Of a stretch of 64,000 bases of DNA, positions 1,359 to 45,700 are shown one piece after another. Position 1 is the stretch's first letter; each line of letters starts with the position of its first letter. The stretch comes from an uncultured Gammaproteobacteria bacterium (lineage in GTDB: Bacteria; Patescibacteriota; Microgenomatia; Levybacterales; GWA1-39-11). A program made the translations under genes and the position numbers. The stretch is taken from contig CAYYLC010000002.1 in NCBI GenBank assembly GCA_964472415.1, positions 32,470 to 96,469 of the forward strand, in the 5' to 3' direction. The notes beneath the pieces were generated by a model. That model searched no databases and was not told the DNA's origin. It saw nothing but the letters and a program-made list of their open reading frames with translations.

Positions 1359-1398
1359 AAACCCTTTCTTAAGTACACAGGAAGGGTTTGTTTTTTTA
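1359..1398 (+). terminator. Rho-independent terminator after the 729-1334 gene
   Basis: Hairpin aaacccttt...aagggttt followed by a T-run (tgttttttt). It lies between the convergent 729 gene and the sortase gene. Confidence 0.5.
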
Positions 1399-1953
1399 AA
1401 TTGGTTTCGCAAATACCAATAGTCGTCTCAACGCAGTCCCCACTGGTGCACACGTTTGTAAAATTAAAATATCTCCCTGCGGTTCTGTAAGATATTGCAC
1501 CTGATCCGGCCATACTTCTTTCTTATCATACACCTTATATTCATACTCACTCCCATCATTTCGGATAATGATTTTTTCACCTATTTTGACCTCACCAAGT
1601 CGGAAGAATGCCGTATTGTACCGGGTTATCCGCCACGGCACGTCTGAGCTATGTGCAAACAAATACACTGTACCACTCTCTCCTGGCAATGAAGAATTTT
1701 TTGCATGTGCGACTCCTTCCTTCAATTTTTCTCTATACTCATCTTGATTAAATGGGTCTACGTCTTTAATAACTTTTGAAAATACTCCGAGAGAGGGGAT
1801 TTCTACAGAAAACTCGACTGCATTTTTTTCTTGTTGAGAATATACGGGAGGAAAAAAGAATTCTTTTGCGAGCGGATAATAAATAAAAACTAATCCTAAA
1901 AAAGAAAACGCCATTAAGGCGTTTCCGATATTCTTCTTGAGCCTGGTATTCAT
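1396..1953 (-). CDS. Sortase-family transpeptidase (small, N-terminal membrane anchor)
   Basis: N-terminal TM (ALMAFSFLGLVFIYYPL). Catalytic His in YLFAHSS, TLxTC-type motif ILILQTCAP with catalytic Cys, and a downstream Arg (ALRRLL). It is the last gene of a minus-strand operon of LPXTG/repeat proteins. Confidence 0.75.
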   Translation of the reverse strand: MNTRLKKNIGNALMAFSFLGLVFIYYPLAKEFFFPPVYSQQEKNAVEFSVEIPSLGVFSKVIKDVDPFNQDEYREKLKEGVAHAKNSSLPGESGTVYLFAHSSDVPWRITRYNTAFFRLGEVKIGEKIIIRNDGSEYEYKVYDKKEVWPDQVQYLTEPQGDILILQTCAPVGTALRRLLVFAKPI

Positions 1954-1983: not shown

Positions 1984-3108
1984 CTAGGCAAGCGCTGGTG
2001 GCGCATTTCCCGAATGAAAACGCAGATACAGACCAAGCATGAAAAGCATTAAAAACATAATGGTAAAAAGATATGTCAACGGGAGCCCACCAGTCACTGG
2101 GAGCACTGCACCATTTGCAGGGCCCTGATCACCATTACCTCCACCGCCATGGCCACCATTCCCAGACTGAACTGTAGATTTTGGTGTATCAGTTGGCTTT
2201 TCAGGCGCTTCTGGTTCTTCTGGAGTCTCAGGTGTTTTTGGCTCACAACTTACACACGTTGTTATTGCGGTACTGCTGTTGATATTTTCATTTTTAACCG
2301 TAATATCACTCTCTATATCTCCTGTTACAATTGCAACATCTCCCAGATTTCCCTGTGCTTTATTTCCGCCAGTATTGAGCTTATGCTTTATATTATTGGT
2401 GATGTTTGCGAGATTTACGACATTGGTAATTGTAGTGTTTTTTTCGTTTACCGTAACGATGTTTACAGAATTGCTTCCGTTTCCAGATATAACTACTGAA
2501 GATGTGTGGGTGCCTGTCTGAGATAGAGCAAAGCTATTATTAATATTTTTGTTCACCACATCAGTAGTTGCGATAATATTTCCAGTTTTTATCCAAACAT
2601 CACCGCTATTGTAATGTGCGTTGTTGTTACCTGTATTCGAATCTGTCTTTACATTATTTGTAATATTTGCAGTATTATTCTGACTAGTAGTTGAGCTTGA
2701 ATTATTTGAAGAATTTACGACATTATGAGAATGAGAACTATTTCCAGAGACTACTATATTTGCCCCTCCATTACAGCAACTGTTGTTATTTGCCACATTT
2801 GAATTAATATTTGTGTTCGTTACCGTTGTATCAGTAGAAACATTTCCCGTTTCTATATTTACTTCACCACCATTGCTATCAGCGCTGTTATTGCCTGTAT
2901 TCGAATCTGACTCTACATTATTTGTAATATTTGATTCATTATTCTGAGATATAACACTTTTGTTCTCAATCTTTATATTCGTTTCATTATTAGAAGAAGA
3001 TCCATTTCCTTCAACTACAATATTAATTTGCTCAGCCATAACCTGCAAGCTAAGCACTTGGTGAATAATGGGCAGGCAGATAAGTAATAATGCTGCCTTT
3101 TTTATCAT
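1984..3108 (-). CDS. LPXTG-anchored Asn/Thr/Ser-rich repeat surface protein (sortase substrate)
   Basis: Start chosen at MIKKAALLLICLPIIHQVLSLQVMA (signal peptide); its ATG overlaps the TGA stop of the upstream gene (ATGA). The C-terminus is a canonical cell-wall sorting signal: a Pro/Glu/Lys/Thr linker (PKTPETPEEPEAPEKPTDTPK), then LPVTG, then a hydrophobic stretch (LPLTYLFTIMFLMLFMLGLYL), then RFHSG. The body carries tandem ~48-aa repeats (QNNTANITNNVKTDSNTGNNNAHYNSGDV.I.TG) and a CC motif. Confidence 0.8.
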   Translation of the reverse strand: MIKKAALLLICLPIIHQVLSLQVMAEQINIVVEGNGSSSNNETNIKIENKSVISQNNESNITNNVESDSNTGNNSADSNGGEVNIETGNVSTDTTVTNTNINSNVANNNSCCNGGANIVVSGNSSHSHNVVNSSNNSSSTTSQNNTANITNNVKTDSNTGNNNAHYNSGDVWIKTGNIIATTDVVNKNINNSFALSQTGTHTSSVVISGNGSNSVNIVTVNEKNTTITNVVNLANITNNIKHKLNTGGNKAQGNLGDVAIVTGDIESDITVKNENINSSTAITTCVSCEPKTPETPEEPEAPEKPTDTPKSTVQSGNGGHGGGGNGDQGPANGAVLPVTGGLPLTYLFTIMFLMLFMLGLYLRFHSGNAPPALA

Positions 3109-5411
3109 AAGAATAGATTTACTCCTCGCAGAGCAAGTGATTTCATTGGTACAAATATCTTTTTCAAAAAAATGAGTACTCCAAGTACTGGCAATGCGAG
3201 AATTAACCATGCAAGATTGATAGTAATCGATTCATCAGCTACTGTCGCAGAATCGTCTTGCCCAACAATTGATGCAACAGTAGCCTCTGACAAATCTTTT
3301 CCAGAGGTTTTTTCACCCCGGACTGTACCTGCGACAATCTTTTGTTCGTTTTCATCATCAATTCCTGCAACATACGTAACATTTTCATTGCCACTATTTT
3401 CTACAACTACCTCAGTTTTTGAAGATTTTGCGTTAGAAGATACATTTTGAGTAGTATTCTGTTCATTATTAAATTTCTCACTATTTCCACCAATATTTTG
3501 TGCGGTATTTTCCTTTTTATGCCCTGGAGTCACAAAATCTCCTATCCAGCTTCCGAACACATTCACGACAGTAACAAGCATCCTTCCCCCACCACTCACA
3601 TTGTTATTTACAAAGTTCACGATATTCGCAACAATCTGAGCGTCCCCTGTCTGGATATTTGAATCTCCGTCAGTATTATAGTTTGCATCATTTTCACCAG
3701 TATTTGCACTTAGGTTTATATTATTCTCAATGTTTGCAGTGTTAGTTTGACTTGTTGTGTTTGTATTGGTGTTATCTATATCACTATTATTGTAAGATCC
3801 TACACCATTCTCATTGTTCTTTGCAGTAACGCTCCCTGTTGTAGGGTCAACATAAAACTCTGTCCCAGCGGAACCTGCCATATTCGATCCATTCTCTGCT
3901 CCAAATAACTTTCCTACCCAATTCCCAGCTTCATTAACAATTACGAGCCACCAGTCCCCGCCATTGATATTTGAATTTGCGATATTTAAAACATTTGCGT
4001 CAATCGATGCGTCCCCTGTCGTAACATTTGAAACTCCGCCAGTATTATAATTTGTACTATTACCTCCCGTTACCGCATCAAAAACAAGGTTATTATTAAT
4101 AGTTGCATCATTGTATTGGAATGTTTCATCAGTATTTATGTTAGTTACTTCCGAATTGTTGTAAGAACCTGCGCCGTTATTGGTATTTGCCGCACTGTTT
4201 TGTGCATAACATGACCCTCCGCAGATTGATTGCATCATTTCCTCAGTAAGAATTATGTCTCCCACGAGGTCTCCGAATATATTTACCACTCCATAGATGA
4301 TGTCTCCAGCCAGATTATTGTTTGCAAACGTCATAACATTTGCGGAAACATTTGCGTCACCTGTGATAATTGTAGAATCTCCCCCTGTATTGAAATTCGC
4401 TGAGTTATTACCTGAGTTTGCAGAAAGATTTAAATTATTCCCGACATATGCGTCGTTATTTTGATTCGTCTTATTTGTGTTCGTGTTATCTACATCACTA
4501 TTATTATAAGATCCAGCACCATTATTGGTATTCTGCGCGACAGCTTCTTCCGGCATGCATCCTTGGATACAATTTGCCCCAAAGTCTAGAATTATGTCAC
4601 CAGTATGGTCATCGAGAATATTAAATTCAGCAATTGCTACCCCGTCTACGTTCGTATTTACAGATGTTACAACAGTTCCCGTTACATTCGCATCTCCTGT
4701 GGTGATCGTAGAATCTCCTACATTGTAAGATGCAGAATTATCTCCTGTTACGGATGATTGCTCTATGTTGTTTCCTACATTCGCACTATTATTTTGAGTC
4801 GTATTATTCGAATTATTAGTCGTTGCTGATCCGTTATTTGAAGAATGAGCGCCATTTCCGCTATTTACTACTCCAGCACTGCCATTCTGAGAGCCATTAT
4901 TTGTAGCAGTATTCATATTTCCACTTGTAATAACATTTGAAGCATTATGTGCGTCATCGGTTTCTACTGTAGTGCTTCCTACATTTCTATTTGCATTCGT
5001 TCCAGTATTGCCATTTGGAGTTTGTACGCTATTTGAGTTATTAGTATTTCCTGGATTGGAGTTATAATTTGGCTTTGGTTTCCAAGCATTCTCTGAAGGC
5101 TTCTTTGGTACCTCAGGTGCTTTTGGCATATCTGGGCTCTTTGGAGCATCCGGAGTCTTAGGTCCTTCTGGTGTTTTTGGAGCATCCGGAGTCTTAGGTC
5201 CCTCTGGTGCCTTCGAGGATTCTGGACCTTTAGGGCTCTTCGGTGACTCAGGTGCTTTTGGTTCTTCAGGGGTCTTTGGCTCCTCAATTGTAGCTTCTGT
5301 GGTTGTTTCCGCAACTATGTCTTCCGCGATTACGACTGATGGTGCGACTGCACGCCCAAGGAGCACGAGGATCAGTGCTATTGTTAGTATCTTTTGTGTT
5401 ATTGTTTTCAT
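3105..5411 (-). CDS. Large secreted Asn/Thr/Gly-rich repeat surface protein with a PE/PK proline-rich linker and a C-terminal hydrophobic anchor
   Basis: Signal peptide MKTITQKILTIALILVLLGRAVAPSVVIA. It carries PEEPKAPESPKSPKGPE...PKTPDAPK repeats. Three ~110-aa repeats contain the shared core (A.YNTGGDS.I.TGDA.V.ANV). CxxxC motifs (CIQGCMPEE, CGGSCYAQN) lie between repeats. The C-terminal TM segment LAWLILALPVLGVLIFL is followed by KK, but there is no canonical LPxTG. Confidence 0.7.
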   Translation of the reverse strand: MKTITQKILTIALILVLLGRAVAPSVVIAEDIVAETTTEATIEEPKTPEEPKAPESPKSPKGPESSKAPEGPKTPDAPKTPEGPKTPDAPKSPDMPKAPEVPKKPSENAWKPKPNYNSNPGNTNNSNSVQTPNGNTGTNANRNVGSTTVETDDAHNASNVITSGNMNTATNNGSQNGSAGVVNSGNGAHSSNNGSATTNNSNNTTQNNSANVGNNIEQSSVTGDNSASYNVGDSTITTGDANVTGTVVTSVNTNVDGVAIAEFNILDDHTGDIILDFGANCIQGCMPEEAVAQNTNNGAGSYNNSDVDNTNTNKTNQNNDAYVGNNLNLSANSGNNSANFNTGGDSTIITGDANVSANVMTFANNNLAGDIIYGVVNIFGDLVGDIILTEEMMQSICGGSCYAQNSAANTNNGAGSYNNSEVTNINTDETFQYNDATINNNLVFDAVTGGNSTNYNTGGVSNVTTGDASIDANVLNIANSNINGGDWWLVIVNEAGNWVGKLFGAENGSNMAGSAGTEFYVDPTTGSVTAKNNENGVGSYNNSDIDNTNTNTTSQTNTANIENNINLSANTGENDANYNTDGDSNIQTGDAQIVANIVNFVNNNVSGGGRMLVTVVNVFGSWIGDFVTPGHKKENTAQNIGGNSEKFNNEQNTTQNVSSNAKSSKTEVVVENSGNENVTYVAGIDDENEQKIVAGTVRGEKTSGKDLSEATVASIVGQDDSATVADESITINLAWLILALPVLGVLIFLKKIFVPMKSLALRGVNLFL

Positions 5412-5507: not shown

Positions 5508-6788
5508 TTAGTTGGACATTCCAAATGTTGCGAAAAATGCTGCCCAGCTGAATGAGAATTCAAGGTTTGGCATTTCTGGCATATCAAAAGAAAAGTCTCC
5601 TAAGATGTTTTCGTTTCCACTGTTTGAAACAGTCGTATCAGAAACAACGTTTCCGGTAGTAATGCTTGGATCAGAATATTCTCCCTCTCCAACATTGTAA
5701 CCAGCTTCGTTATTTCCAGCGTCTGCATCAGCTTCTACGTTGTTGGTCAAATTAGCAGTGTTTCCCTGTCCAACAGTTTGTGTGTTGTCAAGAGTTAAGC
5801 CGATGTAATTTTCGTCTTTATCCCACCAATTTTTCCACCATTTGTGATCTTTGTCACCTGCATTAGCTCCGTTTCCGGAAATTTCAGCAGTGACATCGTA
5901 TTCACATCCGCAATCAACATCTGCTGCATTGAAGTTAACAGCATTGTCAACTCCAACAGTTACTGTTGAATCACCACCCATACCAGCATTGATGTAAACA
6001 TCACCGCCAGTGTTGTAGTTTGCTTTATTGTCACCAGTCTCAGCATCTGCACCTACATTATTAGTAATGTTTGCTGCATTATTCTGAGAAAGTCTTGTGT
6101 CGTTTGTAAGCGCAGCTGCGATTTCATTATCAGATCCTGATCCGTTTCCGATAATCACAAAGCTTGCTGATGGTGTAGGGGTTGCGCTGTTTCCGCTTCC
6201 AATTCGAGCAATATTAGTGTTTGCTTGAGTAGTTACGTCAACATTTGCGAATGCTTTACCAGTATTTATATGAACTTCGCCGCCGGTGTTTTCACCTGCT
6301 TTGTTGTTCCCAGTCTGAGCATCAACTCCTACATTATTTGTTACATTAGCAGTATTTTTCTGATTAACAGTAGTTTTGTTCTCATTTACGAGTCCAACTT
6401 TGTTGTCAGAATCTGAACCGTTCTTTTTAACGGTAACGTCAGCGCCTCCTGCTGCACAACAATCAACCTCAGCAATATTCTTATTGAGGTCGTTTGAAAC
6501 ATTAGCAGTTACATCTGCTTTACCGGTATTAACGTAAACGTCTCCACCAGTATTGTAGTTAGCTTTATTGTCGCCTGTATCTGCTTTTGTTGTTACGTTG
6601 TTGGTGACATTTGCTGTGTTATTCTGGTTAACGGTAGTTTTATTGTTAGATTCAACAATTACTTTATTATCAGATCCTGATCCGTTTCCAGAGATTTCTA
6701 TAGTACCTGCGAGTGCTGGAGTAGCAACATTAAGAAGCATAGCTCCTGCTGCGAGTACTGAAAAGGTTTGTTTTGTAAAATTTGTCAT
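5508..6788 (-). CDS. Secreted Asn/Thr-rich repeat surface protein (four copies of the ~48-aa module)
   Basis: Start chosen at MTNFTKQTFSVLAAGAMLLNVATPALA (signal peptide), preceded by AAGGAGGTG 9 nt upstream; the track ORF extends to 6860. Repeats follow QNNTANVTNNV...TGDNKANYNTGGDVYVNTG. Interspersed motifs: VDCCAAGG and VDCGCEYD. Confidence 0.75.
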   Translation of the reverse strand: MTNFTKQTFSVLAAGAMLLNVATPALAGTIEISGNGSGSDNKVIVESNNKTTVNQNNTANVTNNVTTKADTGDNKANYNTGGDVYVNTGKADVTANVSNDLNKNIAEVDCCAAGGADVTVKKNGSDSDNKVGLVNENKTTVNQKNTANVTNNVGVDAQTGNNKAGENTGGEVHINTGKAFANVDVTTQANTNIARIGSGNSATPTPSASFVIIGNGSGSDNEIAAALTNDTRLSQNNAANITNNVGADAETGDNKANYNTGGDVYINAGMGGDSTVTVGVDNAVNFNAADVDCGCEYDVTAEISGNGANAGDKDHKWWKNWWDKDENYIGLTLDNTQTVGQGNTANLTNNVEADADAGNNEAGYNVGEGEYSDPSITTGNVVSDTTVSNSGNENILGDFSFDMPEMPNLEFSFSWAAFFATFGMSN

Positions 6789-6879
6789 TATTTGTTTCAC
6801 CTCCTTCTCATAATGATTGTTCGATTTCTCGAACGCACTTCGTAAACTTGCTCCGCACATTTCGCCTTCGGTAGCCCCT

Positions 6880-18977: not shown

Positions 18978-21413
18978 CTATTTTTCTAATATATAATTAT
19001 TATCATGATCAAGTGTCACAAAGATCTTTTCTCCCTTTCTAATTGTCTCTTCTAGAATCCCTCGGGAAATAAGATTCTCGATATGCTCCTCTATGTATCT
19101 TCTCACATTTCGGGCACCAAAGTCAGCATCAAATGCCTCACGAGAAATTTTAGCTATTGAACTTTCTGAAAAACTGATATCAATACTTTGTTGTAATAAT
19201 TTTTCTTTGAGATCCATAAGCATTAGGTCTGCAATTTTTATTACATGCTCTTTTGCCAAGGGATGAAACACAACAACATCGCTAAATCTATTGATGAGCT
19301 CTGGCCGGAATATTTCCTTTGTAAGGACGAACTCTATTAACTCTGTTTTTATATTCTCTTCTCCTGTTGCAATCTTCTGACGGATAAACTCACTTCCGGC
19401 ATTTGATGTTGCGATAATTATCGCATTAGAAAAAGAAACCTTTTTCCCTTTATTATTTGTCACAAATCCTTCATCAAGAATTTGTAGGAATACATCTAAA
19501 AGTCGCGTATTCGCTTTCTCAAATTCGTCAAGGAGCACCACTGAGAATGGATTTTTTACAATCTTATCTATTAAACTTTCTGAAAAACTCTGCTCTCCAG
19601 GCATTTCTCCCAATAGTTTTTTCATCGATTCCTCCGTCTGATATTCTGACATGTCAACTCGAATCATTTTCTTTTCATCGCCAAAATATTCCTTTGAGAG
19701 GAGTTTTGCCATCGTCGTCTTCCCCACACCACTGGGTCCTAAAAATAAAAATGACGCGATTGGTCCTTGGCTTTTTTTTAATCCGCTCCTTAATCGCCTT
19801 ACTGCATTCGATACTGCTGAAACTGCTTCATTTTGACCCACTAGTCGCTTATGAAGCGTGTCTTCTAGATTGAGTAATTTCTTCTTCTCCTCAACAGTAG
19901 GCGCAGACAAATTTACGCCAGTCTTCTCCACTATAAGCTCTTGCACGTCCGCTGCAGTAATTGTATTTCTTCCTGCATGAAATACTCGGACTATTGTGTC
20001 TTCCAGAAGTCGTATTGCAGAACCAGGAAGCAACAGATTTGACGAATATAAATTTGCAGAATTGATAATTTCCCGAACTGCTCCATACGTCACAATTACA
20101 TTCGAGCTTTTTTCCCTAATCTCAATATCATGAATTGCCATAAATAATGTAGTTTTTTCGTCTGGCTCATCAAGCGAGATCGCGTGAAAATGAATCTGAA
20201 CTGAAGATTTTGGTGCAATAAAATCTTTATATGCTTGTGGTGTCGTCGTTCCGATAATCTGCACACGGCTACTTTCTAAATATGGCTCAAGTGCCCCTGA
20301 AATATCAAAATTAAATCCACCCCCACCAAAAATATTCTCTATGCTCTCCAAAAATACAATAACATTTCCCGCATGAGAAACTTCAGTAAAAATATTATTC
20401 AATCTCCTCTCTATCTCTCCCCTATCCTTTGCACCGGAAATCAACCTATCAATAAACAAAAAATATATCCTTTTTCTCTTGAGATTTTTCGTGATCTCTC
20501 CTTTATGCGCATCATACGCAACGTCCATCACTAACGTCGTCTTCCCAACGCCCGGATTCCCAATCAAAAGAACATTACTTGAAGATCCTCGCGAAAGGCT
20601 TTCTATCATTTGCCGATATTCTTTTTCTCTCCCCACTGCTTTTGGTTCATATCCAAGGCGTATTACTTCACTCGTAAAATCAGATGTATATTTTTTTGTA
20701 GCAGGAGTCCAACCATGTATCAATTGGTCGAAAATACCACTTCCATTAAAAGTACCCTGCAACACTTCCGTCGGGTCTTCAATACGAAATCTTTTCCTCA
20801 CCCAAAACAAAATAACCAACATATCTTGAGCCATTAACCCCTCTTGTTCTAAGATTTTTACACTTGGCTCTTGAAGTAAAATATAAGCAACTAATACATC
20901 TACTGCATGGATATATTTTCCTTGAATCATCTGCACCAATTCCCCAGCCTTTTTTAAAAGTTCATCTTTGGAAAGATTTATATCGACAAGCTGAAGTGAA
21001 GAATTTATTTTTTGAATAGCAAATCTTCCTTCTTTTGTACGGGCAATCTGTACAACAAGCTCATGGCTTGTCTGTGGTGACAGCATGTCTGCTCGAACAT
21101 TAAACAACGTAGCTTCATAGAGATTTTCAGCATTAGTTACTGTCCTTGCCGGATTTAGGGTACGGAGTTTTTTAATAAATAATTCTTGGAGGATTAACAC
21201 AAAAAGGAACGGTGAGAGAATCAAGAGTATCCGAACATTATCAAAAAAAAGTATCCCAATTACAAAAACCAGCATGAATAATACTCCTCGCACAAACAAT
21301 GCTTCTTTTGTATTCAAAATTTTATAGAGTTTAAAATGATTAGAGCCCAACATAGAAAAGATATAATAATAACCCTGGAAGTATAAAAAAGAGTGCAATG
21401 ATAAAAAGTTCAA
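18978..21413 (-). CDS. ClpA/ClpC-like double-AAA+ ATPase with N-terminal transmembrane segments; no M-domain; no obvious ClpP-docking tripeptide
   Basis: Two Walker A motifs (LIGNPGVGKTT and LFLGPSGVGKTT) and a Clp_N-like region. Hydrophobic segments lie at the N-terminus (VLFMLVFVIGILFF, LLILSPFLFVLIL). A short linker separates AAA1 from AAA2. No [IVL]GF loop seen between ATSNAGS and FRPELINRF. Confidence 0.7.
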   Translation of the reverse strand: MNFLSLHSFLYFQGYYYIFSMLGSNHFKLYKILNTKEALFVRGVLFMLVFVIGILFFDNVRILLILSPFLFVLILQELFIKKLRTLNPARTVTNAENLYEATLFNVRADMLSPQTSHELVVQIARTKEGRFAIQKINSSLQLVDINLSKDELLKKAGELVQMIQGKYIHAVDVLVAYILLQEPSVKILEQEGLMAQDMLVILFWVRKRFRIEDPTEVLQGTFNGSGIFDQLIHGWTPATKKYTSDFTSEVIRLGYEPKAVGREKEYRQMIESLSRGSSSNVLLIGNPGVGKTTLVMDVAYDAHKGEITKNLKRKRIYFLFIDRLISGAKDRGEIERRLNNIFTEVSHAGNVIVFLESIENIFGGGGFNFDISGALEPYLESSRVQIIGTTTPQAYKDFIAPKSSVQIHFHAISLDEPDEKTTLFMAIHDIEIREKSSNVIVTYGAVREIINSANLYSSNLLLPGSAIRLLEDTIVRVFHAGRNTITAADVQELIVEKTGVNLSAPTVEEKKKLLNLEDTLHKRLVGQNEAVSAVSNAVRRLRSGLKKSQGPIASFLFLGPSGVGKTTMAKLLSKEYFGDEKKMIRVDMSEYQTEESMKKLLGEMPGEQSFSESLIDKIVKNPFSVVLLDEFEKANTRLLDVFLQILDEGFVTNNKGKKVSFSNAIIIATSNAGSEFIRQKIATGEENIKTELIEFVLTKEIFRPELINRFSDVVVFHPLAKEHVIKIADLMLMDLKEKLLQQSIDISFSESSIAKISREAFDADFGARNVRRYIEEHIENLISRGILEETIRKGEKIFVTLDHDNNYILEK

Positions 21414-22629: not shown

Positions 22630-24459
22630 TTACTGACTCGTACAGATTAGAGGGCATAACTGTATACTACCTTCACCTTGATTACACGATGGATCAAAAT
22701 CACACCGATAATATTTTATGGGCGTAGGAGTAGCAGTAGGCTTTTTTGCCGCTTCTGTAGGAGGCTGTATAGGATCATTAGTCGGTAATGGCCCAGAAGT
22801 AGGCTGGATTACTACCGTAACAGTAGGCTGTGCGATATCTCTCGTAACCCGAATGGGAACCTGAATAGAGGGGCTATTCTGATCAAGAATAAGGTCTTCT
22901 GTACTTATCCCTTGGTAGCCTATGCGAAATGTCCCCGGAAAAAGGCTATCGAAAATAAAGGTTCCATCAGTAAGCGTCGCAGTCGTATCAGAATATGCTC
23001 CTGAAAGCTCAACTATCTGATTCTCCATAGGTGAATCTCCAGCATCAAAGGAGCCACTATTATTAGTATCTTCATATATAATACCTTGAATATAATATTG
23101 CGCAACACCAGGGGTCAGTGTTACTTGAGGGTCAGGGGTCAATGTAGGTATTGTAATACTCCCACTCCGTCCACAATTTGCTATCGCATTTGCGATATTC
23201 AGGCGTGGACCAATAGAAGACGATGAGGAAGTGCCATCCGCATTACTCACTAAGCAACTTTCCACTTCAGCTGATGTAAGTCCTGAATTCACAGAGAGCA
23301 AGAGTGCTGCAGCACCTGCTACATGAGGCGCTGCCATTGACGTTCCTTGCATCACTTTATAACTAGCACCAGGAATAGTAGATAATATATTTACACCAGG
23401 AGCCGAAATATCAACAGTATCTCCATAATTACTAAATGATGCTTTTCCATCATTTTGTGTCGACGCACCTACCGAAATTACTCCTTGGCATGAAGCGGGA
23501 GTAAACCCTACTGCATCCGTATTACTATTCCCTGCTGCGACAACTACAACGACCCCTTTAGAAATGCCTTCATTAATTGCATTTTGATACGACGACTGCG
23601 GAGCGCACGACCCTCCTCCACCAAGACTCATATTAATCACTCTCGCTCCATTAGTTATTGCATATTCTATCCCTGAAACAATACTCTGAGTAGTACCCCC
23701 GCATCGACCGTATGCTGGACCCATGGTCTTTACGGGCATAATACGAACATCCCAATTCACGCCCACAACCCCCACATCATTATCACCCACTGCACCAACT
23801 GTTCCTGCGACATGGGTTCCGTGACCACATTCATCAGATGGATCGGAGTCATTGGAATAAAAATCGTATCCTGAAGTCAACCTACCAGATAAGTCTGGAT
23901 GCGAGAGATCAATTCCACTATCAATCACCGCGACAGTGATCGCACTCGATCCGATCGTAGTATCCCATGCGACCGGCGCTTGTATTTTTTCTAGTCCCCA
24001 CAAACTAGAATACTGAGGATCATTTGGAATACGAAATGGTTCCATAATAAAGTTCGGTTCAGAAGCAAGTATTTCATTAATATGAGAAAGCTCTTCTTGA
24101 AGCACTCCAATATCTTTTCCTTCTTCAAGCTTCAATAAATAATACCTACTCAATAATCCCTCCATGGATTCATACGCCTTCTCCTGACTCTCTACTCCGA
24201 ACGCTTTCAGCCTTATCTCTAGATCTTGTCTCTGAGAATCACTTAACTCATGAGGCGCTTTATCTTCTCTATAGTTAACAAGTAATTCATAAGGAACATA
24301 TGGCGCTACCGGAGGAATCGCAACATACGGATCACGACTCAAAAAGTATCCTACTACAAAGCTTCCTATCCCCAAAAAAAGAACTCCGGAAAGAGCGACT
24401 ACTAGTTTCTTATTCTTGAAATATTTAGAACGTTTCAAATTGCGTATTTGGCTCGGCAT
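22630..24459 (-). CDS. Subtilisin-like serine protease (S8) with N-terminal TM, I9-like propeptide, CarboxypepD_reg-like domain and Cys-rich C-terminal tail
   Basis: Catalytic Asp (VAVIDSGID), His (HGTHVAGT) and Ser (GTSMAAPHVAGAAALL). The C-terminus reads YYRCDFDPSCNQGEGSIQLCPLICTSQ. Confidence 0.85.
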   Translation of the reverse strand: MPSQIRNLKRSKYFKNKKLVVALSGVLFLGIGSFVVGYFLSRDPYVAIPPVAPYVPYELLVNYREDKAPHELSDSQRQDLEIRLKAFGVESQEKAYESMEGLLSRYYLLKLEEGKDIGVLQEELSHINEILASEPNFIMEPFRIPNDPQYSSLWGLEKIQAPVAWDTTIGSSAITVAVIDSGIDLSHPDLSGRLTSGYDFYSNDSDPSDECGHGTHVAGTVGAVGDNDVGVVGVNWDVRIMPVKTMGPAYGRCGGTTQSIVSGIEYAITNGARVINMSLGGGGSCAPQSSYQNAINEGISKGVVVVVAAGNSNTDAVGFTPASCQGVISVGASTQNDGKASFSNYGDTVDISAPGVNILSTIPGASYKVMQGTSMAAPHVAGAAALLLSVNSGLTSAEVESCLVSNADGTSSSSSIGPRLNIANAIANCGRSGSITIPTLTPDPQVTLTPGVAQYYIQGIIYEDTNNSGSFDAGDSPMENQIVELSGAYSDTTATLTDGTFIFDSLFPGTFRIGYQGISTEDLILDQNSPSIQVPIRVTRDIAQPTVTVVIQPTSGPLPTNDPIQPPTEAAKKPTATPTPIKYYRCDFDPSCNQGEGSIQLCPLICTSQ

Positions 24460-24874
24460 TTACTACTTCTGGCAACAGATAGATTTGCTGTGCTACTTCT
24501 TCTATATTAGTACCTTGCTGAAACTTTAACAAGTAATATCTGCTCAAAGCTCCTTCTTCTGCTTCATACGCCCTCTCTTGAGAAATAACCCCAAAGCTCT
24601 CAAAGAGACTCAAAATCTCTTGCTGCCGTTCCGGCACTAAATTATCAAACTCCTGACCCTCAGAATATTGAATAATAAGCTCCTCTTCTACACGGGGTGC
24701 ATCAGGAAATGTAGGAAGCGGTGCTTTTTGCGTCGGCGTAGGAATCAATAGGACATGATCTTCAGACTCTTCCACGCTACTCGCCAGAAAAAATAACACC
24801 ACTGGGATTAATACTGCAACACCGAGAAGGATGACTACTATTTTTCTATTTTTTACAGAAAGTTTTTGTATCAT
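24425..24874 (-). CDS. Membrane-anchored stand-alone subtilisin-propeptide (inhibitor I9)-like protein, paralogous to the N-terminus of the downstream S8 protease
   Basis: TM (IVVILLGVAVLIPVVLFFLA), then ELIIQYSEGQEFDNLVPERQQEILSLFESFGVISQERAYEAEEGALSRYYLLKF... This aligns with the S8 gene segment ELLVNYREDKAPHELSDSQRQDLEIRLKAFGVESQEKAYESMEGLLSRYYLLKL. It overlaps the S8 gene by 35 nt. Confidence 0.6.
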   Translation of the reverse strand: MIQKLSVKNRKIVVILLGVAVLIPVVLFFLASSVEESEDHVLLIPTPTQKAPLPTFPDAPRVEEELIIQYSEGQEFDNLVPERQQEILSLFESFGVISQERAYEAEEGALSRYYLLKFQQGTNIEEVAQQIYLLPEVVNAEPNTQFETF

Positions 24875-27855
24875 TGTGTTGTTTGAGAATCTCCATTTAC
24901 TGCCATAGTTAATGCCTCACCAGTCGCAGGGTCAACAGGAGGAGGGGCTGGAGTTGGATCTTGAGTAATTGGTGCTGCCGGATCAACAATTATTCCACTA
25001 TTTTGCGGAGGTAGCGGTTGACCAGGAGGATACATTCCTTGATTCATTTGAGGATTTCCACCCTGCTGAAGATTGTATACCCCATTTTGCGGCACTACCT
25101 GCCCTCCCTGTTGCACACCATCTTGCCTAAGAGACGGATCCAATTGCGTAGGGTTTTGTTGGGCAGTTGGATTATTAGGGTCTACTGGAATTGTACCTTG
25201 TTGAGGAGGAGCTCCCATCTCCTGCTGCTGATTCTGTGAATTCAATGATTTTTTAAAAGTAAATTGTTTCGTTTGCTCATCATAATCTACGATAATTATA
25301 TCTCCTTGAACAAATTTCTTCCCAATAATATCCATGCTTATCGGGTTTTCTATAACTGACTGGATGAGTCGCCTCAACGGACGGGCACCATACACAGGAT
25401 CAAATCCATCCTTTGCTAAAATCTCAACTGCTTTCTCCGTTATCTCGAGCCCGAATCCTTGCTCTTTCAAAAGTTTCTGCGTATTCTTAATCCCCAACTT
25501 CGAGATCGCATTCATATATTTTTGAGTCAATGGTTTAAAAATGGCAACACCATCAAACCTATTTATAAGTTCTGGTCTAAAGAATTTGATAAGCTCATCC
25601 ATAAGATTCTTGGAGAGCTCCTGGAATACTTTCTCATCAATTTTCTCCTCATCTGTCATTCCTGCTTCCACACTTGAGCTCGGTGGCTGTTCATTTTGAG
25701 AATTTTGATTTTCAGCACTAGGCACAGCTTGAGCCTGTTCAGCACTTACCTCTGCCCCTTTTTCCTTATTATCTGCTACAGAAAGCTCCTTTACTTCTTT
25801 TTGTGTAATTAATGTTTCTTGAATCAATCTGCTCCCAATGTTTGATGTTGCAATAACAATCGTGTTTTTAAATGAAATCGTATTTCCTTTATTATCAGTT
25901 AGCCTTCCATCCTCAAGGAGCTGAAGAAGGATATTAAATACATCCGGGTGTGCTTTCTCTACCTCATCAAGCAACACTATAGAATATGGCTTATGCCTGA
26001 CCGCCTCAGTTAACTGTCCGCCCTCTTCATACCCTACATATCCAGGAGGTGCACCAATGAGCTTTGCAACCTCATGTTTTTCCATATATTCAGACATATC
26101 GAGCCTGACCATCGCATCATCTCTTCCAAATAAAATTTCTGCGAGTGTTTTTGCAAGCTCTGTTTTTCCGACTCCTGTAGGACCCAAAAACATAAATGAT
26201 GCTATTGGCCTATTTGCCGAAGCGAGACCAATCCTCCCACGACGCACTGCTTCTGAGACTGCCTTTACTGCCTCTTCTTGATCAATTAGCCTTTGATGAA
26301 TCAAATCCTCAAGCTGCAAAAGCTTTTTACTTTCATCCTCAGTAAGTTTTGTAACAGGAATTCCTGTCCATGCACTTACAACCTTTTCTATATCAGCCCT
26401 AACAACTTGTGTATCTTTTCGCTTCCCCTCAGCAGCCATAAGCTTTACCTCCGCTGCTGCCTCATCTATTAAATCAATTGATTTATCAGGAAGGTGCCGC
26501 TCACCGATATATTTTTTCGAGAGTTTTACTGAATATTCTATTGCCTCAGGAGTGATAGTTACATTATGAAACTTTTCATATTTTACCTGTAAAACCTTCA
26601 TCATTTCTATTGCCGTCTCGACGCTTGGCTCTTCTACAATTATCGCCTGGAAACGTCTCTGAAATGCCTTGTCTTTTTCAAAGAACTTTCTATATTCTGC
26701 AGTAGTCGTAGTCCCAATAATCTGCAATTGCCCTCGTGCAAGATATGGCTTAATGATGTTTGATGCATCCATCGCACCATCTGTTGAACCAGCGCCAATA
26801 AGCGTATGAATCTCGTCAATAAATAATAGATATTTCCCTTCAGAAAGCATCACTTCTTTAATGACATTCTTCAATCGCTCTTCAAATTCTCCCCTATGCG
26901 AAGCCCCAGCAATAAGAGAAGTTAAATCAAGTTGAATTATTTTCTTATCTTGAAGTTCTTTTGGGAGTTTTTTCTGGACCATTAACTGTGCAAGTGCTTC
27001 AACAATTGCTGTTTTTCCAACTCCTGCCTCCCCAATTAAAATTGGATTATTTTTACTCCGCCTGAGCAATATATGCACAGTGCGCTCTATTTCTTTTTCA
27101 CGGCCGACAACTGGATCAAGCTTTCCGTTTTGCGCCTCAAGCGTTAAATCGATTCCGAACTCCTCAATAACACTTTTTTTACCGGTCTTGAACTTTGTAT
27201 CTTTTTGGATTGCCTCCTCAAAAGCCTTTTTTTCTATTCCTTTCGCCGAAAGAAGTTGTGCAGCTGACTCAGAAGAAAACAGCGCAAGCAATAAATCTTC
27301 TGGTGAAACAAAGCTTGTTCCTCGTTTCTGAGAATTCTGATACGCTTCATCAAAGATCCTCTGTGTTGCTTCTGATAAAATTGGAGGAGTTGTTGCAGTT
27401 CCCGTTTGCTGATGTGTTTCAATTTCCTGTGCGAGCAGCGCCACATCTACTTGATGCTTCTGGAGAATTTTATATATCTCTCGATCATGCGTTAACGCAA
27501 GAAGAAGCATATCAGGCTCAATTGTAGGATGCTGAAAACGTCTGGCGTCATTCTGAGCCTGCTGAAGAATTTGATTGGATCTAGAATCCAAATGGGAAAG
27601 AGCATTAACGTTTTGTCGTTTTGACGGATCCATAGTTGTTCCCGCAATACCTTGATTTGGGGCCATTCCATTTTGCATTTGAACTTGAGGGGGATATCCT
27701 TGCAAAGGCATCTGTGGTGCTCCCTGAACCATCTGATTTTGCTGAGGATCACCTTGCCCTACTACTTGATTATTTGGCGCAAATAGACCCTGCGGGTTCT
27801 GTGGTGCAGGCTTCGCCTCATCAAATTGTTTTTTCTTAAATAAGTCTCCAAACAT
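24871..27855 (-). CDS. ClpA/ClpC-like double-AAA+ ATPase with Gln/Asn/Pro-rich low-complexity N- and C-terminal extensions
   Basis: Clp_N domain, then AAA1 Walker A IGEAGVGKTA and AAA2 Walker A FLGPTGVGKTE, with no M-domain. The first ~75 aa (PQNPQGLFAPNNQVVGQGDPQQNQMVQGAPQMPLQGYPPQVQMQNG) and the last ~120 aa are Q/N/P-rich. Confidence 0.8.
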   Translation of the reverse strand: MFGDLFKKKQFDEAKPAPQNPQGLFAPNNQVVGQGDPQQNQMVQGAPQMPLQGYPPQVQMQNGMAPNQGIAGTTMDPSKRQNVNALSHLDSRSNQILQQAQNDARRFQHPTIEPDMLLLALTHDREIYKILQKHQVDVALLAQEIETHQQTGTATTPPILSEATQRIFDEAYQNSQKRGTSFVSPEDLLLALFSSESAAQLLSAKGIEKKAFEEAIQKDTKFKTGKKSVIEEFGIDLTLEAQNGKLDPVVGREKEIERTVHILLRRSKNNPILIGEAGVGKTAIVEALAQLMVQKKLPKELQDKKIIQLDLTSLIAGASHRGEFEERLKNVIKEVMLSEGKYLLFIDEIHTLIGAGSTDGAMDASNIIKPYLARGQLQIIGTTTTAEYRKFFEKDKAFQRRFQAIIVEEPSVETAIEMMKVLQVKYEKFHNVTITPEAIEYSVKLSKKYIGERHLPDKSIDLIDEAAAEVKLMAAEGKRKDTQVVRADIEKVVSAWTGIPVTKLTEDESKKLLQLEDLIHQRLIDQEEAVKAVSEAVRRGRIGLASANRPIASFMFLGPTGVGKTELAKTLAEILFGRDDAMVRLDMSEYMEKHEVAKLIGAPPGYVGYEEGGQLTEAVRHKPYSIVLLDEVEKAHPDVFNILLQLLEDGRLTDNKGNTISFKNTIVIATSNIGSRLIQETLITQKEVKELSVADNKEKGAEVSAEQAQAVPSAENQNSQNEQPPSSSVEAGMTDEEKIDEKVFQELSKNLMDELIKFFRPELINRFDGVAIFKPLTQKYMNAISKLGIKNTQKLLKEQGFGLEITEKAVEILAKDGFDPVYGARPLRRLIQSVIENPISMDIIGKKFVQGDIIIVDYDEQTKQFTFKKSLNSQNQQQEMGAPPQQGTIPVDPNNPTAQQNPTQLDPSLRQDGVQQGGQVVPQNGVYNLQQGGNPQMNQGMYPPGQPLPPQNSGIIVDPAAPITQDPTPAPPPVDPATGEALTMAVNGDSQTTQ

Positions 27856-27904
27856 ATTTCTATTATAGACAAATTACAAACTATTGACCAAATTATAAGT
27901 CCCT

Positions 27905-30292
27905 TTATGCATCTTGCTCTCCTGAATTATTATCTTTATTTTGCTCAATTGGCAATTCTCGTCGCATAACCATCTCAGCAGAAGCTGATTCTTGCCGTGG
28001 CTTATTTTTAAGAAGCATATCATCTTCCTCACGCTTTTGGGTTAATGCTTCTAGCACCTCACGACCAGCAGCTTGCTTTGCCTTGAGATATGCAATAACC
28101 TCTGCTTTTGAAAATCCTCCAATTAACAAGAATGGCAACACATCCGAAACTGTTTCCATGCCTTTTTGTATTTGTGTTTGATCTGGAGAGCTTAAGAGAT
28201 TTATTGCTTCTTCTATCTTTTGACCATCCTGAGTAACCCACTCTTCCTTTGAAAGCCTCTTTCCATCAAGCGGTGCTGGTGGTTCCATATTGGCGTAATT
28301 TTCCTTCCATATATTCTTTACTTCTTCATACTCATCCAAGCTTACTTGTTGAACACGATTGACTACCGGCAGTGATGCTTGTGCAATAGCACTTACCCCT
28401 TCTTGCGGAAGTACTTTTTCTGCAAGCTGGCTTCCTTTCTCTTTTTCTGCAAATAATTTCTCCTTTACTTTATCGAGAAGTGATTGTCGCTCTTCCTCAT
28501 TAATTGTCTCACTTGCAACCTTATTACTCATGTCCAAAACATAGGTTGCGAGCGGATTCCCTTGACTCTGCGCAGAGAGTAACTCTTCACGAATAGATTG
28601 TGCCTTTTGTCGCTCTTGGGGAGAAAGTGCTCTTGTAGGAGACGCGATATGCTGAAGCGTAAGATTCAAACGATTCTTTACCATCTCGCCTGCCATTCGT
28701 CCTCGCATACCAACTTGTGATCCAAGACGTGACGCACTCAAAATAGAAGATGCAAGAGGGTCTCCCTTCTGCTGCATTTGAACCAATTTTTCTTTAATAG
28801 TTGTAAACTTCTCACGTTCAATAACAGGAGCTGTCGCAGGAGATGAGATTTGACTCAGCTTATTTGTTACCTCAGTGCGCTGCTGCTGAATAGTCTGATT
28901 TTTTGTCAATGAGGCTGATTCCATACGCGCAATATCACGCATTTTTGGAATTGAGAGATTTGCAAGTCGCATTACCTCTGTCGTTTCATTTGTAACTGCA
29001 GAAGTCCTTTGTTGAGAAGATACCCCTTTATTTACATCAGCACTCGTTATTTTCTTAACAGGTATCTGCATTTGCCGCTTATTTGAAAATGGCAAACTCA
29101 TAGCACGCCCAGCTCCTGCCGGACTAATTGGCGGTGGGGGAGGAGGAGATCCAGGAGGAGATCCAGCAGGTTGATTGATAAATGGAATGTTTGTCCTTGC
29201 TATTCGCCGATACAACGCAGTCTCGGTAAATGATGCATTATTTATGTAATCCAAAAATATCTGCAACAACAGCCAGGGAAGGAGGATCACTACCCAGAGC
29301 ATTAAGAGCGCTACGACATACTGTGCAAATGTGTCACTCAAATTTACAGAATTTGTAATTCCGATTCGCTGCGCTGGACCTCCAAGTAAAATACTAATTG
29401 CTGTCGGATATACTACCTGACCTTGTTCTACTCCAGAAAAATCAAATCCTAATGGAATTCTATCTCGCCACATTCCAACTAAACCATGGAGGAAAATCGC
29501 AAAAAGAGGAGCGTATAAAAGCCATCGGAAAAATTCTCCCACCCATACTTTGGCAGTATTTCTCAGTGGAGAAAAAAAGATTAAAAGCGGAAAAACAGGC
29601 GAGATGATAAGAAAAAACCATAATATAATTTTCCTGATTAGGAGAATACCTGACATCACATAATATGTCACCGCAGTAATCCGAACAAGTAAAAGCGAAA
29701 TATAGGCAGACTCATCATATTGGATACCTGCCTTTCGATAACCCATAAATTGATAATCAAATCCTATATAGAGAAGGTCTGTTGGATCAATCAATCGTTC
29801 ATTCTGAGACTCTGGATCTGTCGTTGCAAGAAAGAAACCTTGAATAACATCAAAAAACTGATAAAGAAATCTCACAATCGCAAAGGACAAAACAATAAAA
29901 AGGAGAATTATGATGAATCGAGGAATAAACCGCACAATGGTAAGATTCTGCCCTCTTGTAATAATCATAATAAACGCAGCAACAAGAATAAAAAGTACGA
30001 TTAACGCAAGAACTATTCGAAGAATCTCGCTCCAAAATACTGCTAGAGGATTCGTTGCAGCATCTTCTCCAAGATCAATCCACTCATAATTCTGCAATGT
30101 CCATTCTAAAAACGCATTTGCACGAGCTGCCGTTTTCCCAATAAACGTTACCTCTTGATCTTCTCTCCAATCGGCTAACACATCGGGCACAGGGGTAGTG
30201 CCCACAACTTGTGCTGAAGCAGTGCCGGGAAAGGAAAAGACACCTGATAAAAATAGGACTGTGGTAAACAATATGGGCAGTAATCGTTTCAT
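27905..30292 (-). CDS. Large polytopic membrane protein, VirB6/TrbL-like (putative type IV secretion-like channel component) with a long coiled C-terminal cytoplasmic domain
   Basis: Signal peptide, about 6-7 TM helices over residues 90-350, a poly-Pro linker (SPPGSPPPPPPISPAG), then a ~400-aa Gln/Glu/Lys-rich domain. It lies immediately downstream of a VirB2-like pilin gene. The family assignment is by architecture. Confidence 0.35.
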   Translation of the reverse strand: MKRLLPILFTTVLFLSGVFSFPGTASAQVVGTTPVPDVLADWREDQEVTFIGKTAARANAFLEWTLQNYEWIDLGEDAATNPLAVFWSEILRIVLALIVLFILVAAFIMIITRGQNLTIVRFIPRFIIILLFIVLSFAIVRFLYQFFDVIQGFFLATTDPESQNERLIDPTDLLYIGFDYQFMGYRKAGIQYDESAYISLLLVRITAVTYYVMSGILLIRKIILWFFLIISPVFPLLIFFSPLRNTAKVWVGEFFRWLLYAPLFAIFLHGLVGMWRDRIPLGFDFSGVEQGQVVYPTAISILLGGPAQRIGITNSVNLSDTFAQYVVALLMLWVVILLPWLLLQIFLDYINNASFTETALYRRIARTNIPFINQPAGSPPGSPPPPPPISPAGAGRAMSLPFSNKRQMQIPVKKITSADVNKGVSSQQRTSAVTNETTEVMRLANLSIPKMRDIARMESASLTKNQTIQQQRTEVTNKLSQISSPATAPVIEREKFTTIKEKLVQMQQKGDPLASSILSASRLGSQVGMRGRMAGEMVKNRLNLTLQHIASPTRALSPQERQKAQSIREELLSAQSQGNPLATYVLDMSNKVASETINEEERQSLLDKVKEKLFAEKEKGSQLAEKVLPQEGVSAIAQASLPVVNRVQQVSLDEYEEVKNIWKENYANMEPPAPLDGKRLSKEEWVTQDGQKIEEAINLLSSPDQTQIQKGMETVSDVLPFLLIGGFSKAEVIAYLKAKQAAGREVLEALTQKREEDDMLLKNKPRQESASAEMVMRRELPIEQNKDNNSGEQDA

Positions 30293-30295
30293 AGC

Positions 30296-30592
30296 TTAGC
30301 TGAATCCGGGAATTTGTAAAATATCTCCACTAATAATTTGCATAAACACAAACCCGAAAACAGCAAGCAAGACGCCAATAATAGAATACGTTATGTATGA
30401 TTTTCCTATTTGAAGCTTACTTGGATCGCCCTGAGAAGTCATAATATAATACCCACCCACAATAATAAAAATAAGCGCAACCATTCCAATAAACCCAAGC
30501 CCTATTCCATAAAATTTCTCAACAAATCCGACAGGGTCATTCGGGATACACCCAAAATCTGTCATTATTTCACTAGGAGCACACACAGCCAT
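30296..30592 (-). CDS. VirB2/TrbC-like T4SS-type pilin (two-TM hairpin)
   Basis: Two conserved N-terminal Cys (C4, C15), TM1 FYGIGLGFIGMVALIFIIVGGYYIM, the loop motif TSQGDPSKLQIGKSYI, and TM2 YSIIGVLLAVFGFVFMQII. Confidence 0.4.
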   Translation of the reverse strand: MAVCAPSEIMTDFGCIPNDPVGFVEKFYGIGLGFIGMVALIFIIVGGYYIMTSQGDPSKLQIGKSYITYSIIGVLLAVFGFVFMQIISGDILQIPGFS

Positions 30593-35759: not shown

Positions 35760-36194
35760 CTATTTTGTAGCCTTTACCTTTTTCGAAACTTTAATTTTTT
35801 TCGGTTCCTGTTTTTGAACCTTTTTAAAGGTGAGCTTCAAAATGCCATCCTCAAGCTCTGCCTTTGGCTCCTCATCTCGAACAATTCCCTCCGGAACTCG
35901 GAAAGAATAACTAAATGACGTTGCCATAGATGACATAAAATAGCGCCTCTTATCCTTCTCCTCCTGCCTATCTTCAGCGCTTCCAGTTACCCGGACTACC
36001 CCATCCTCAAACGTTATATCTATTCTATCTTCAAGGAGTCCAGGGACTGCTGCTTCTGCAACTACCGTGTCCGCAGTTTCATAAATATTTAAACCTTGGC
36101 CCATCAAGCGAGAGACACCGGGGATTGTAGGGAGATCCCAATCATCTTCAAAAAATCGTTCAATATTCCAAGGATTCCATCGTATGATTGCCAT
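35760..36194 (-). CDS. Hsp20/alpha-crystallin family small heat-shock protein
   Basis: Alpha-crystallin domain (...DGVVRVTGSAE...ILKLTFKK). Start chosen at MAIIRW, preceded by GGAGGTG. Confidence 0.85.
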   Translation of the reverse strand: MAIIRWNPWNIERFFEDDWDLPTIPGVSRLMGQGLNIYETADTVVAEAAVPGLLEDRIDITFEDGVVRVTGSAEDRQEEKDKRRYFMSSMATSFSYSFRVPEGIVRDEEPKAELEDGILKLTFKKVQKQEPKKIKVSKKVKATK

Positions 36195-36288
36195 ATTTTT
36201 CACCTCCTTCCGTTTGTATGTACATTAGCAATGTATCATAATAACTGCTAATTTGTCAACACTTTTATCGTCTGATATCATTATCTTC

Positions 36289-44020: not shown

Positions 44021-45700
<1,680 letters not shown>

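Follow-up and report, generated by a model that had tools for sequence, protein, structure and literature searches.

A heat-shock-operon Hsp100 ATPase of a Levybacteria-type Patescibacterium without M-domain and ClpP loop, with disordered tails ending in conserved peptides

To our knowledge, all characterised bacterial Hsp100 disaggregases (ClpB, ClpG and ClpL) have a middle (M-) domain, and all ClpP partners have a docking tripeptide. The M-domain of ClpC is short (about 54 amino acids, aa). Here we analysed a Clp protein of 994 aa encoded in a stretch of 64,000 nucleotides (nt), hereafter the window, of an uncultured bacterium placed among the Levybacterales of the Patescibacteriota (GCA_964472415.1, contig CAYYLC010000002.1, positions 32,470 to 96,469; comparisons within the window cover its 48 open reading frames, ORFs). 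The family to which this protein belongs, and to which 120 of 120 nearest homologues retrieved belong as well, had neither M-domain nor docking tripeptide, yet an intact motor and a location in the dnaK operon. We read the protein as a ClpP-independent heat-shock unfoldase or disaggregase whose Pro/Gln-rich tails would be tethers for conserved peptides making contacts with the protein itself or with partners, a reading to which we lend slightly more belief than doubt.

Other Hsp100s work without ClpP. ClpG/ClpK and ClpL are ClpP-independent and function without Hsp70, and the N1 domain and the C-terminal extension of ClpG are extra terminal elements for aggregate targeting (PMC8024975, PMC8129007). 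These proteins keep the M-domain and their extra domains are folded, whereas residues 1-82 of the 994-aa Clp were predicted as disordered (predicted local distance difference test, pLDDT, <50), with no folded N-terminal extra domain. Among newly defined Clp classes, the closest precedent is ClpI of Actinomycetota (Jiang & Schmitz 2023), a bioinformatically defined double-ring class of which some subtypes lack the LGF motif (PMC10149685). ClpI differs in its phylum and in keeping an M-domain of ClpC length, and it is not reported to have disordered tails.

Both AAA+ modules with their motifs, as well as the D2-small domain, were recognised by Pfam and alignment in the 994-aa protein, as in two-ring (class 1) Clp/Hsp100 ATPases. 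Pfam matched Clp_N twice, AAA (272-405), AAA_lid_9 (411-492), AAA_2 (549-768) and ClpB_D2-small (776-856). D1 displayed Walker A GEAGVGKT (275-282), the pore loop AGASHRGEFE (316-325), Walker B LLFIDE (343-348) and the Arg finger AFQRRFQ (397-403), and D2 displayed Walker A GPTGVGKT, the pore loop GAPPGYVGY, Walker B IVLLDE, sensor-1 TSN, the Arg finger NRFD and sensor-2 GARPLRR. The motor was intact: an alignment of 78 sequences showed no variation at the two Walker A/B pairs, the two Arg fingers, sensor-2 or the GYVG of D2. A preliminary description of this DNA, made from the letters alone, had named a Clp-type, ClpA/C-like ATPase, while the absence of the M-domain, the His of the D1 pore loop and the conserved CIRCE/dnaK cluster had escaped it. 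Proteins identical to the 994-aa Clp were present on 3 public contigs. All family counts refer to its 120 best homologues (56-79% identity), which came from many independent metagenomes and, where named, from metagenome-assembled genomes of Candidatus Levybacteria or the Patescibacteria group.

The M-domain was lacking altogether. In the phmmer alignment to E. coli ClpB, query residues 459-475 matched ClpB 390-406 and query 481 matched ClpB 528, ClpB 407-527 being skipped; because the alignment jumps from 406 to 528, the whole domain is missing. The spacing from Walker A1 to Walker A2 was 283 residues, and 283-284 in four family loci (this one and three divergent orthologues), as compared with 336-338 residues in 11 canonical ClpC loci used as outgroup and 399 in E. 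coli ClpB. The alignment to ClpA was continuous, in one unbroken stretch.

Comparison with each described class gave a mixed picture. ClpB/Hsp104 resembled the protein in giving the best NCBIfam and Protein Data Bank (PDB) sequence scores, in lacking a ClpP loop and in being encoded with the dnaK system and controlled by heat shock, but its coiled-coil M-domain of about 120 aa, which binds DnaK and defines ClpB, was wholly absent here, and the score stayed below the equivalog cutoff (TIGR03346, 887.9 vs 1232.1 bits). All other NCBIfam scores were likewise below their cutoffs (ClpA TIGR02639, 724.5 vs 993 bits; ClpG NF033607 and ClpK NF033606, 644 and 669 bits vs 1900). ClpA shares the N-D1-D2 layout without middle domain, but it has an IGL ClpP loop and no disordered tails, and the protein scored 515 bits against PDB ClpA chains. 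ClpC loci were the closest relatives outside the phylum among the matches listed (about 42-43% identity over residues 92-860), and they share the double Clp_N, the two AAA+ rings, a similar start (MFGxLF here, M(M)FGRFT in ClpC) and the top fold matches. They differ by a spacer of 337 instead of 283 residues, a VGF/LGF ClpP loop, a D1 pore loop reading KYRGEFE instead of SHRGEFE, and 45-70 residues after sensor-2 in most canonical loci (108 in one) as compared with 127-186 in the family loci. When a collection of species-representative genomes was scanned with the whole protein, the matches listed, which served only as outgroup, were canonical ClpC loci sharing about 40% identity with it, with no Patescibacterial orthologues among them. 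Foldseek searches with the full model gave ClpC and ClpB as nearest folds, with ClpC structures (including ClpC/ClpP complexes) on top and nothing beyond these. Judged by its defining features, the protein is neither ClpB, ClpC, ClpA nor ClpG/K/L, and is best described as a ClpC/ClpB-derived N-D1-D2 unfoldase without M-domain and without ClpP loop.

Across the family, GAPPGYVG of D2 was found in 119 of the 120 homologues, while the D1 pore-loop Tyr was replaced by His (H320), a residue shared by 115/120, the full AGASHRGEFE being kept in 113/120 (KYRGEFE in ClpC). A Saccharibacteria homologue (L083), which was not encoded in a dnaK cluster, kept a spacer of ClpC length and had no tails, no xGF loop and a KHRGDFE pore loop. 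Since it keeps the spacer and has no tails, tails and M-domain loss are suggested to have arisen together inside one Patescibacterial branch. The His of the D1 pore loop (26881..26910 of the window, minus strand) recurs in this homologue, and the Tyr-to-His exchange may have preceded M-domain loss because the His stands there together with an M-domain-length spacer.

At the position of the ClpP loop, query residues 682 to 752 corresponded to E. coli ClpB 729 to 742, leaving about 57 extra residues. In the AlphaFold2 model, helices 675-699 and 735-758 formed an extended hairpin, with this insertion as its disordered tip (702-731, pLDDT <50). Its length between anchors (query 685-745) ranged from 14 to 104 residues across the homologues, many having only 14-20, and family members with short loops resembled ClpB in loop length. 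Identity of the insert was 0.15 among 15 close orthologues. The preliminary description had seen here an acidic insertion without [ILV]GF. The insertion stood and was acidic in this protein (23% D+E), but acidity turned out to be clade-specific: most homologues at about 59-66% identity had just 1-8% D+E, acidic inserts being found in the protein's own clade and some others. The absence of the tripeptide held for the whole family. No ClpP-docking [ILV]G[FL] occurred in the loop, the lone [ILVM]G[FL] of the protein being IGL542 in the conserved RRGRIGL before Walker A2; a credible xGF in the D2 loop was found in 0/120 homologues (a single chance VGL occurred in one variable insert), while all canonical ClpC loci examined carried the docking tripeptide.

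That the protein is still a ClpP partner, docking non-canonically through the D2 insertion or through a tethered hydrophobic C-terminal peptide, is very unlikely. The closest relatives outside the phylum among the matches listed (about 42% identity) and the nearest solved folds do belong to ClpC and its ClpP complexes, insertion and C-tail both emerge, judged by established ClpC/ClpA structures, on the side of D2 by which ClpC touches ClpP, and the C-terminal peptide has hydrophobic G[MI]IVDP[YF] and PFNPF segments. However, besides the missing xGF, the insert was neither conserved in sequence nor in length, the short loops, ancestral in the family, were ClpB-like, and the extreme C-terminus was not a conserved HbYX-type docking motif. 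No clpP gene was found in the window or in four 22-kb loci, and the window held no ClpX, Lon or FtsH gene either.

The low-complexity extensions that the preliminary description had noted at both termini were confirmed, with about 88 aa at the N-terminus and about 134 aa at the C-terminus. Residues 1-88 contained 18% Q, 12.5% P, 10% G and 9% N (27% Q+N, 50% QNPG) and residues 861-994 contained 19% Q, 16% P, 10% G and 8% N (27% Q+N, 53% QNPG), whereas Q+N made up 8% of the folded core. Both extensions were present in 120/120 nearest homologues, always enriched in Q/N/P/G, with lengths of 32-169 aa before the Clp_N anchor and 68-157 aa at the C-terminus. Measured by binomial tails against the proteome of the window (Q 3.9%, N 5.8%, P 4.2%), the linkers were in excess for Q+N (p 5e-7 for the N linker, 4e-11 for the C linker) and for QNPG (p 6e-13 and 3e-19), well above background. 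The tail ranked first in QNPG density (41/60) among the ORFs of the window, followed by 36, 32 and 30, and its Q+N density (23/60) was marginally over that of three probable surface proteins (20-22/60).

Conservation was concentrated at the tips of these extensions. Among 15 close orthologues, identity reached 0.78 for residues 1-30 and 0.78 for residues 953-986, comparable to 0.73-0.94 in the folded domains, and 89% for the pre-helix region (69-95), as compared with 0.28 in the N linker (31-68) and 0.21 in the C linker (874-952), both with indels. The N-terminal peptide M-[FL]-G-[ND]-L-F, present in 118/120 homologues, was followed by x-x-K-K (K at positions 9-10) and resembled M(M)FGRFT, with which the canonical ClpC proteins of the outgroup loci begin; the linker behind it held a semi-conserved PQNPQGxFAPN (18-30). 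At the other end, the consensus GIIVDP..P..DPTPAPPPVDPxTGEAMTM was conserved up to the stop codon. Its homologous counterpart across the wider family was GMIVDPYTPVQNP...PFNPF together with [ST]DGTQMQP close to the terminus. Predicted disorder, a variable linker, constant composition and a conserved tip were found together, and the extensions look like tethers ending in conserved peptides and not like prion domains in the usual sense. In SSB (linker and acidic tip) and FtsZ (C-terminal linker and peptide), a variable P/Q/G-rich linker likewise leads to a conserved, contact-making end peptide. The likeness, folded core plus variable linker plus conserved tip, would be architectural and without homology; these proteins are unrelated, and Clp bears such modules at both termini of an AAA+ unfoldase.

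A phmmer search of 1.84 billion representative proteins, with 60 residues of the C-tail as query, returned only two matches and did not recover the representatives of the Clp family itself either. Both matches lay in giant surface proteins, on Ig-like strands that occur there as repeats (GETITVTINGNAQTT), and were judged spurious, and there is no evidence in these sequences for the C-terminal peptide as a module common to other families.

Structure prediction was run with AlphaFold2 on the full-length protein (from the 78-sequence alignment) and on residues 746-994 only (D2-small and tail). Residues 1-82, 702-731, 873-967 and 985-994 had pLDDT <50. Residues about 966-985 of the C-terminal peptide were predicted with pLDDT about 80 and two beta-bridges in the full-length model, and about 79 in the shorter one, which is consistent with docking on D2-small and with an autonomous hairpin alike.

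An artefactual origin of the extensions (wrong start codon, read-through or chimeric contig) has a negligible probability. The tails are of low complexity, and in all four loci inspected clp began without a preceding Shine-Dalgarno sequence (27856..27904 of the window; 9930..10000 in the orthologous loci L002-L004). However, 118/120 homologues, which stem from numerous independent metagenomes, share the N-terminal hexapeptide that starts from the annotated Met, four loci are near-identical over the first 18 nt, the C-terminal peptide is conserved to the stop codon, and a gap of 49 nt separates the end of the upstream gene from the clp ATG. No tandem DNA repeats were found under the tails, and their origin by DNA repeat expansion was rejected. 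An assembly or start-codon artefact is effectively excluded because all 120 homologues carry both enriched extensions. Regarding the start region itself, the first 18 coding nt (ATGTTTGGAAATTTATTT) were near-identical in the four loci, and a TATAAT box 6 nt upstream occurred in the protein's own genome only. This box belongs to an internal promoter match (27890..27862, TGGTCA-17-TATAAT, ending 6 nt before the ATG); a leaderless clp promoter was rejected, as the TATAAT is not conserved in the three orthologous loci.

The preliminary description had gone further and called the extensions prion-like, with self-association of the unfoldase, phase separation or recruitment of Q/N-rich clients as possible roles. 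The bias behind this proposal is strong and kept across the family, and charge is very low (D/E/K/R 1/60 in the N linker, residues 16-75, and 5/81 in the C linker, residues 872-952). The Michelitsch-Weissman criterion for prion-like sequence reportedly requires at least 30 Q+N per 80-residue window. The protein lies at its edge, with a maximum of 29/80, or 30/81 (C linker, residues 872-952, with P 14/81), and 14/120 homologues reach 30. However, the family median was 20.5 (range 12-39), so that Q/N density is not conserved, and extension lengths differed about 2- to 5-fold. Relative to the core, Pro was the most enriched residue of the family tails (4.4-5.3x), ahead of Gln (3.3-3.7x), Asn (2.2-2.7x) and Met (about 2.4x), while Arg, Lys and Leu were nearly lacking and aromatic 'sticker' residues fell to 0.3-0.4x. 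Such proline contents (12.5-16% in this protein, 15-19% in family tails) are unfavourable to amyloid and would lower PAPA-type scores, and the trace of selection was visible in the embedded peptides rather than in the Q/N tracts. We regard prion-like or condensate-forming domains as unlikely. The tails call for caution with composition-based prion-like assignments, the low-complexity sequence being the spacer and the conserved information lying in the tips.

Elsewhere in the window, a sortase gene (1396..1953) adjoined large Q/N-rich proteins (17-19% Q+N) without Pfam match (729..1334, 1984..3210, 3105..5411 and 5508..6860), which are probably surface proteins. Q/N-rich sequence is not unique to Clp in this genome, because these sortase-adjacent proteins are Q/N-rich too.

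The clp gene lay in a heat-shock cluster encoded on the minus strand, in the order hrcA, grpE, dnaK, a type IV secretion system (T4SS) pilin-like gene (98 aa), a TrbL/VirB6-like gene (795 aa), clp, a propeptide-like ORF (149 aa), an S8 subtilase gene, dnaJ and, further on, a second Clp paralogue (Table 1). A site resembling CIRCE (controlling inverted repeat of chaperone expression) overlapped the best sigma-70-like promoter match of the region (TTGACA-17-TATATT) at the head of the cluster. The operator at the promoter and all genes from hrcA to the second clp downstream on the minus strand correspond to an HrcA/CIRCE regulon. The same gene order was found in 3 further genomes (L002-L004), whose Clp proteins were 59-63% identical to this one; across these four divergent genomes, the order dnaK-pilin-TrbL-clp-S8-dnaJ was kept, with pilin-like proteins of about 100 aa and TrbL/VirB6-like proteins of 713-795 aa.

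This synteny opens the possibility of a membrane machine, in which the terminal peptides of Clp, for instance, would tether it to the TrbL/VirB6-like protein and Clp would unfold or extract proteins at the membrane, for export or for the S8 subtilase. More than 20 TrbL-like homologues were found on contigs equal in size to those bearing Clp homologues, the TrbL-like protein has a long soluble C-terminal region with three G[DNS][PQ]LA..[IV]L repeats, MFGxLFxxKK displayed an amphipathic-helix-like pattern on inspection of the sequence, and the tail-less Saccharibacteria homologue sits outside such a cluster. However, synteny within a stress operon may reflect co-regulation only, and Clp itself lacks a hydrophobic segment. 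The TrbL assignment was also faint, a Pfam scan of the 795-aa protein giving no match at E<=1e-3, and the pilin match fell below its cutoff. We consider a membrane machine quite unlikely. Within its soluble C-terminal half, at residues about 498-635, the TrbL-like protein carried three copies of the motif EKLxxxQxKG[DNS][PQ]LA..[IV]L (KGDPLASSIL, QGNPLATYVL and KGSQLAEKVL), which may be a putative docking repeat. Downstream of clp, the product of the 149-aa ORF shared 37% identity over 145 aa (E=2e-22) with the propeptide-like region of the subtilase and could be a free-standing inhibitor or chaperone of this adjacent protease.

Table 1. Coordinates of the features discussed (positions in the window; residues are those of the 994-aa Clp)
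Feature	Position	Strand	Basis or remark
clp ORF, two-ring (class-1) Clp/Hsp100 ATPase with terminal extensions, 994 aa	24871..27855	-	ATG start; ORF call, Pfam
N-terminal conserved peptide MFGDLFKKKQFDE, residues 1-13	27817..27855	-	consensus across homologues
N-terminal disordered linker, Q/P/G/N/M-rich, residues 14-74	27634..27816	-	pLDDT <50, low identity
Conserved pre-helix MDPSKRQNVNALSHLD and double Clp_N, residues 75-230	27166..27633	-	Pfam; pLDDT about 90; helix 77-88
AAA+ module D1, residues 231-480	26416..27165	-	motif positions; ClpB alignment
D1/D2 junction without M-domain, EVKLMAAEGKRKDTQVV, residues 469-485	26401..26451	-	ClpB alignment
AAA+ module D2 and D2-small, residues 481-868	25252..26415	-	Pfam, alignment, motifs
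Variable, partly disordered insertion at ClpP-loop position, residues 686-745	25621..25800	-	ClpB alignment, pLDDT
C-terminal disordered linker, Q/P/G/N-rich, residues 869-952	25000..25251	-	pLDDT <50, low identity
C-terminal conserved peptide GIIVDPAAPITQDPTPAPPPVDPATGEALTMAVNG, residues 954-988	24892..24996	-	orthologue identity
CIRCE-like inverted repeat (HrcA operator) TTAGCACTAATATAGCATGACTGCTAA	33854..33880	+	2 mismatches; 0.02 chance matches expected; upstream of hrcA
T4SS-pilin-like (98 aa) and TrbL/VirB6-like (795 aa) genes	27905..30592	-	pilin Pfam 25.9 bits vs cutoff 26.6
TrbL/VirB6-like polytopic protein, 795 aa	27905..30292	-	TrbL assignments faint or precomputed
Membrane-anchored S8 subtilase	22630..24459	-	conserved in four genomes
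149-aa ORF, membrane anchor and copy of subtilase N-terminal propeptide-like region	24425..24874	-	overlaps clp stop by 4 nt
Second Clp-like paralogue	18978..21413	-	34% identical to the 994-aa Clp; 791 aa from Met21 (18978..21353)
Hsp20 gene	35760..36200	-	just upstream of heat-shock cluster
GroEL gene	44021..45691	-	about 10 kb from heat-shock cluster
PilN/PilO-like genes	51150..52309	+	also in window

The two divergent paralogues within 9 kb that the preliminary description had pointed out were indeed present. The second one had an N-terminal hydrophobic, membrane-anchor-like segment (residues about 15-63) and no Clp_N domain. Its D1 was degenerate (Walker B FLES, Arg finger lost with SVQIHFH, pore loop AKDRGE), its D2 kept intact Walker A/B with a pore loop (GEMPGEQSF) devoid of GYVG, and it had neither M-domain nor xGF. 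It was conserved downstream of dnaJ in L002 and L003, not in L004.

Regarding the favoured reading, the protein would be a heat-shock-operon Hsp100 of a Levybacteria-type Patescibacterium which lost M-domain and ClpP loop with its motor intact. Stand-alone, ClpP-independent action as unfoldase or disaggregase, with co-expression of DnaK, DnaJ and GrpE, would be most likely from the loss of the M-domain and of the ClpP-docking loop. The linkers would act as almost uncharged, Pro/Gln-rich disordered tethers that supply reach and flexibility and drift freely in sequence and length, and the tip peptides MFG[ND]LFxxKK and IVDP..P...PPPVDPxTGEAMTM would be the functional elements of the tails. They would dock on Clp itself (D2-small being one candidate for the C-terminal peptide) or on partners, and such docking would give the regulation or targeting otherwise provided by M-domains and adaptors in ClpB and ClpC.

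Several points weigh against this reading. The replacement of Tyr by His in the D1 pore loop could mean changed substrate handling, and the ordered C-terminal peptide could be an autonomous hairpin rather than a docked element. For the N-terminal peptide no docking site was predicted because AlphaFold2 confidence there was low (pLDDT about 41). Co-location with dnaK is no proof of cooperation, the canonical contact surface for DnaK (the M-domain) being missing, and the absence of ClpP covers 64 kb, which does not settle its presence in the genome.

A more specific and unlikely proposal is that the M-domain and adaptor logic was replaced by tethered short motifs, which would recruit DnaK or would anchor the hexamer to the TrbL/VirB6-like protein as a membrane-proximal unfolding or extraction machine. 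If true, Hsp100 coupling would here take a form that is not known from the ClpA/B/C/E/G/L/V classes. Literature searches returned no description of an Hsp100 with such tails and without M-domain and ClpP loop, nor of a Patescibacteria Clp. The ClpP/ClpB genes of a TM7x transcriptome paper were rejected as a Patescibacteria precedent, since they belong to the host.

The observation itself stands firm. The architecture, which is unusual in this field, was shown together with the conservation pattern, the predicted disorder and the operon context, whereas we infer ClpP independence in vivo, disaggregase activity, what the tails and peptides do and what the peptides bind. If these ultra-small cells rely on this Clp as their main disaggregase, they would have a different means of targeting and controlling Hsp100 rings, through short peptides on disordered leashes, and Hsp70-Hsp100 cooperation without an M-domain would become testable.

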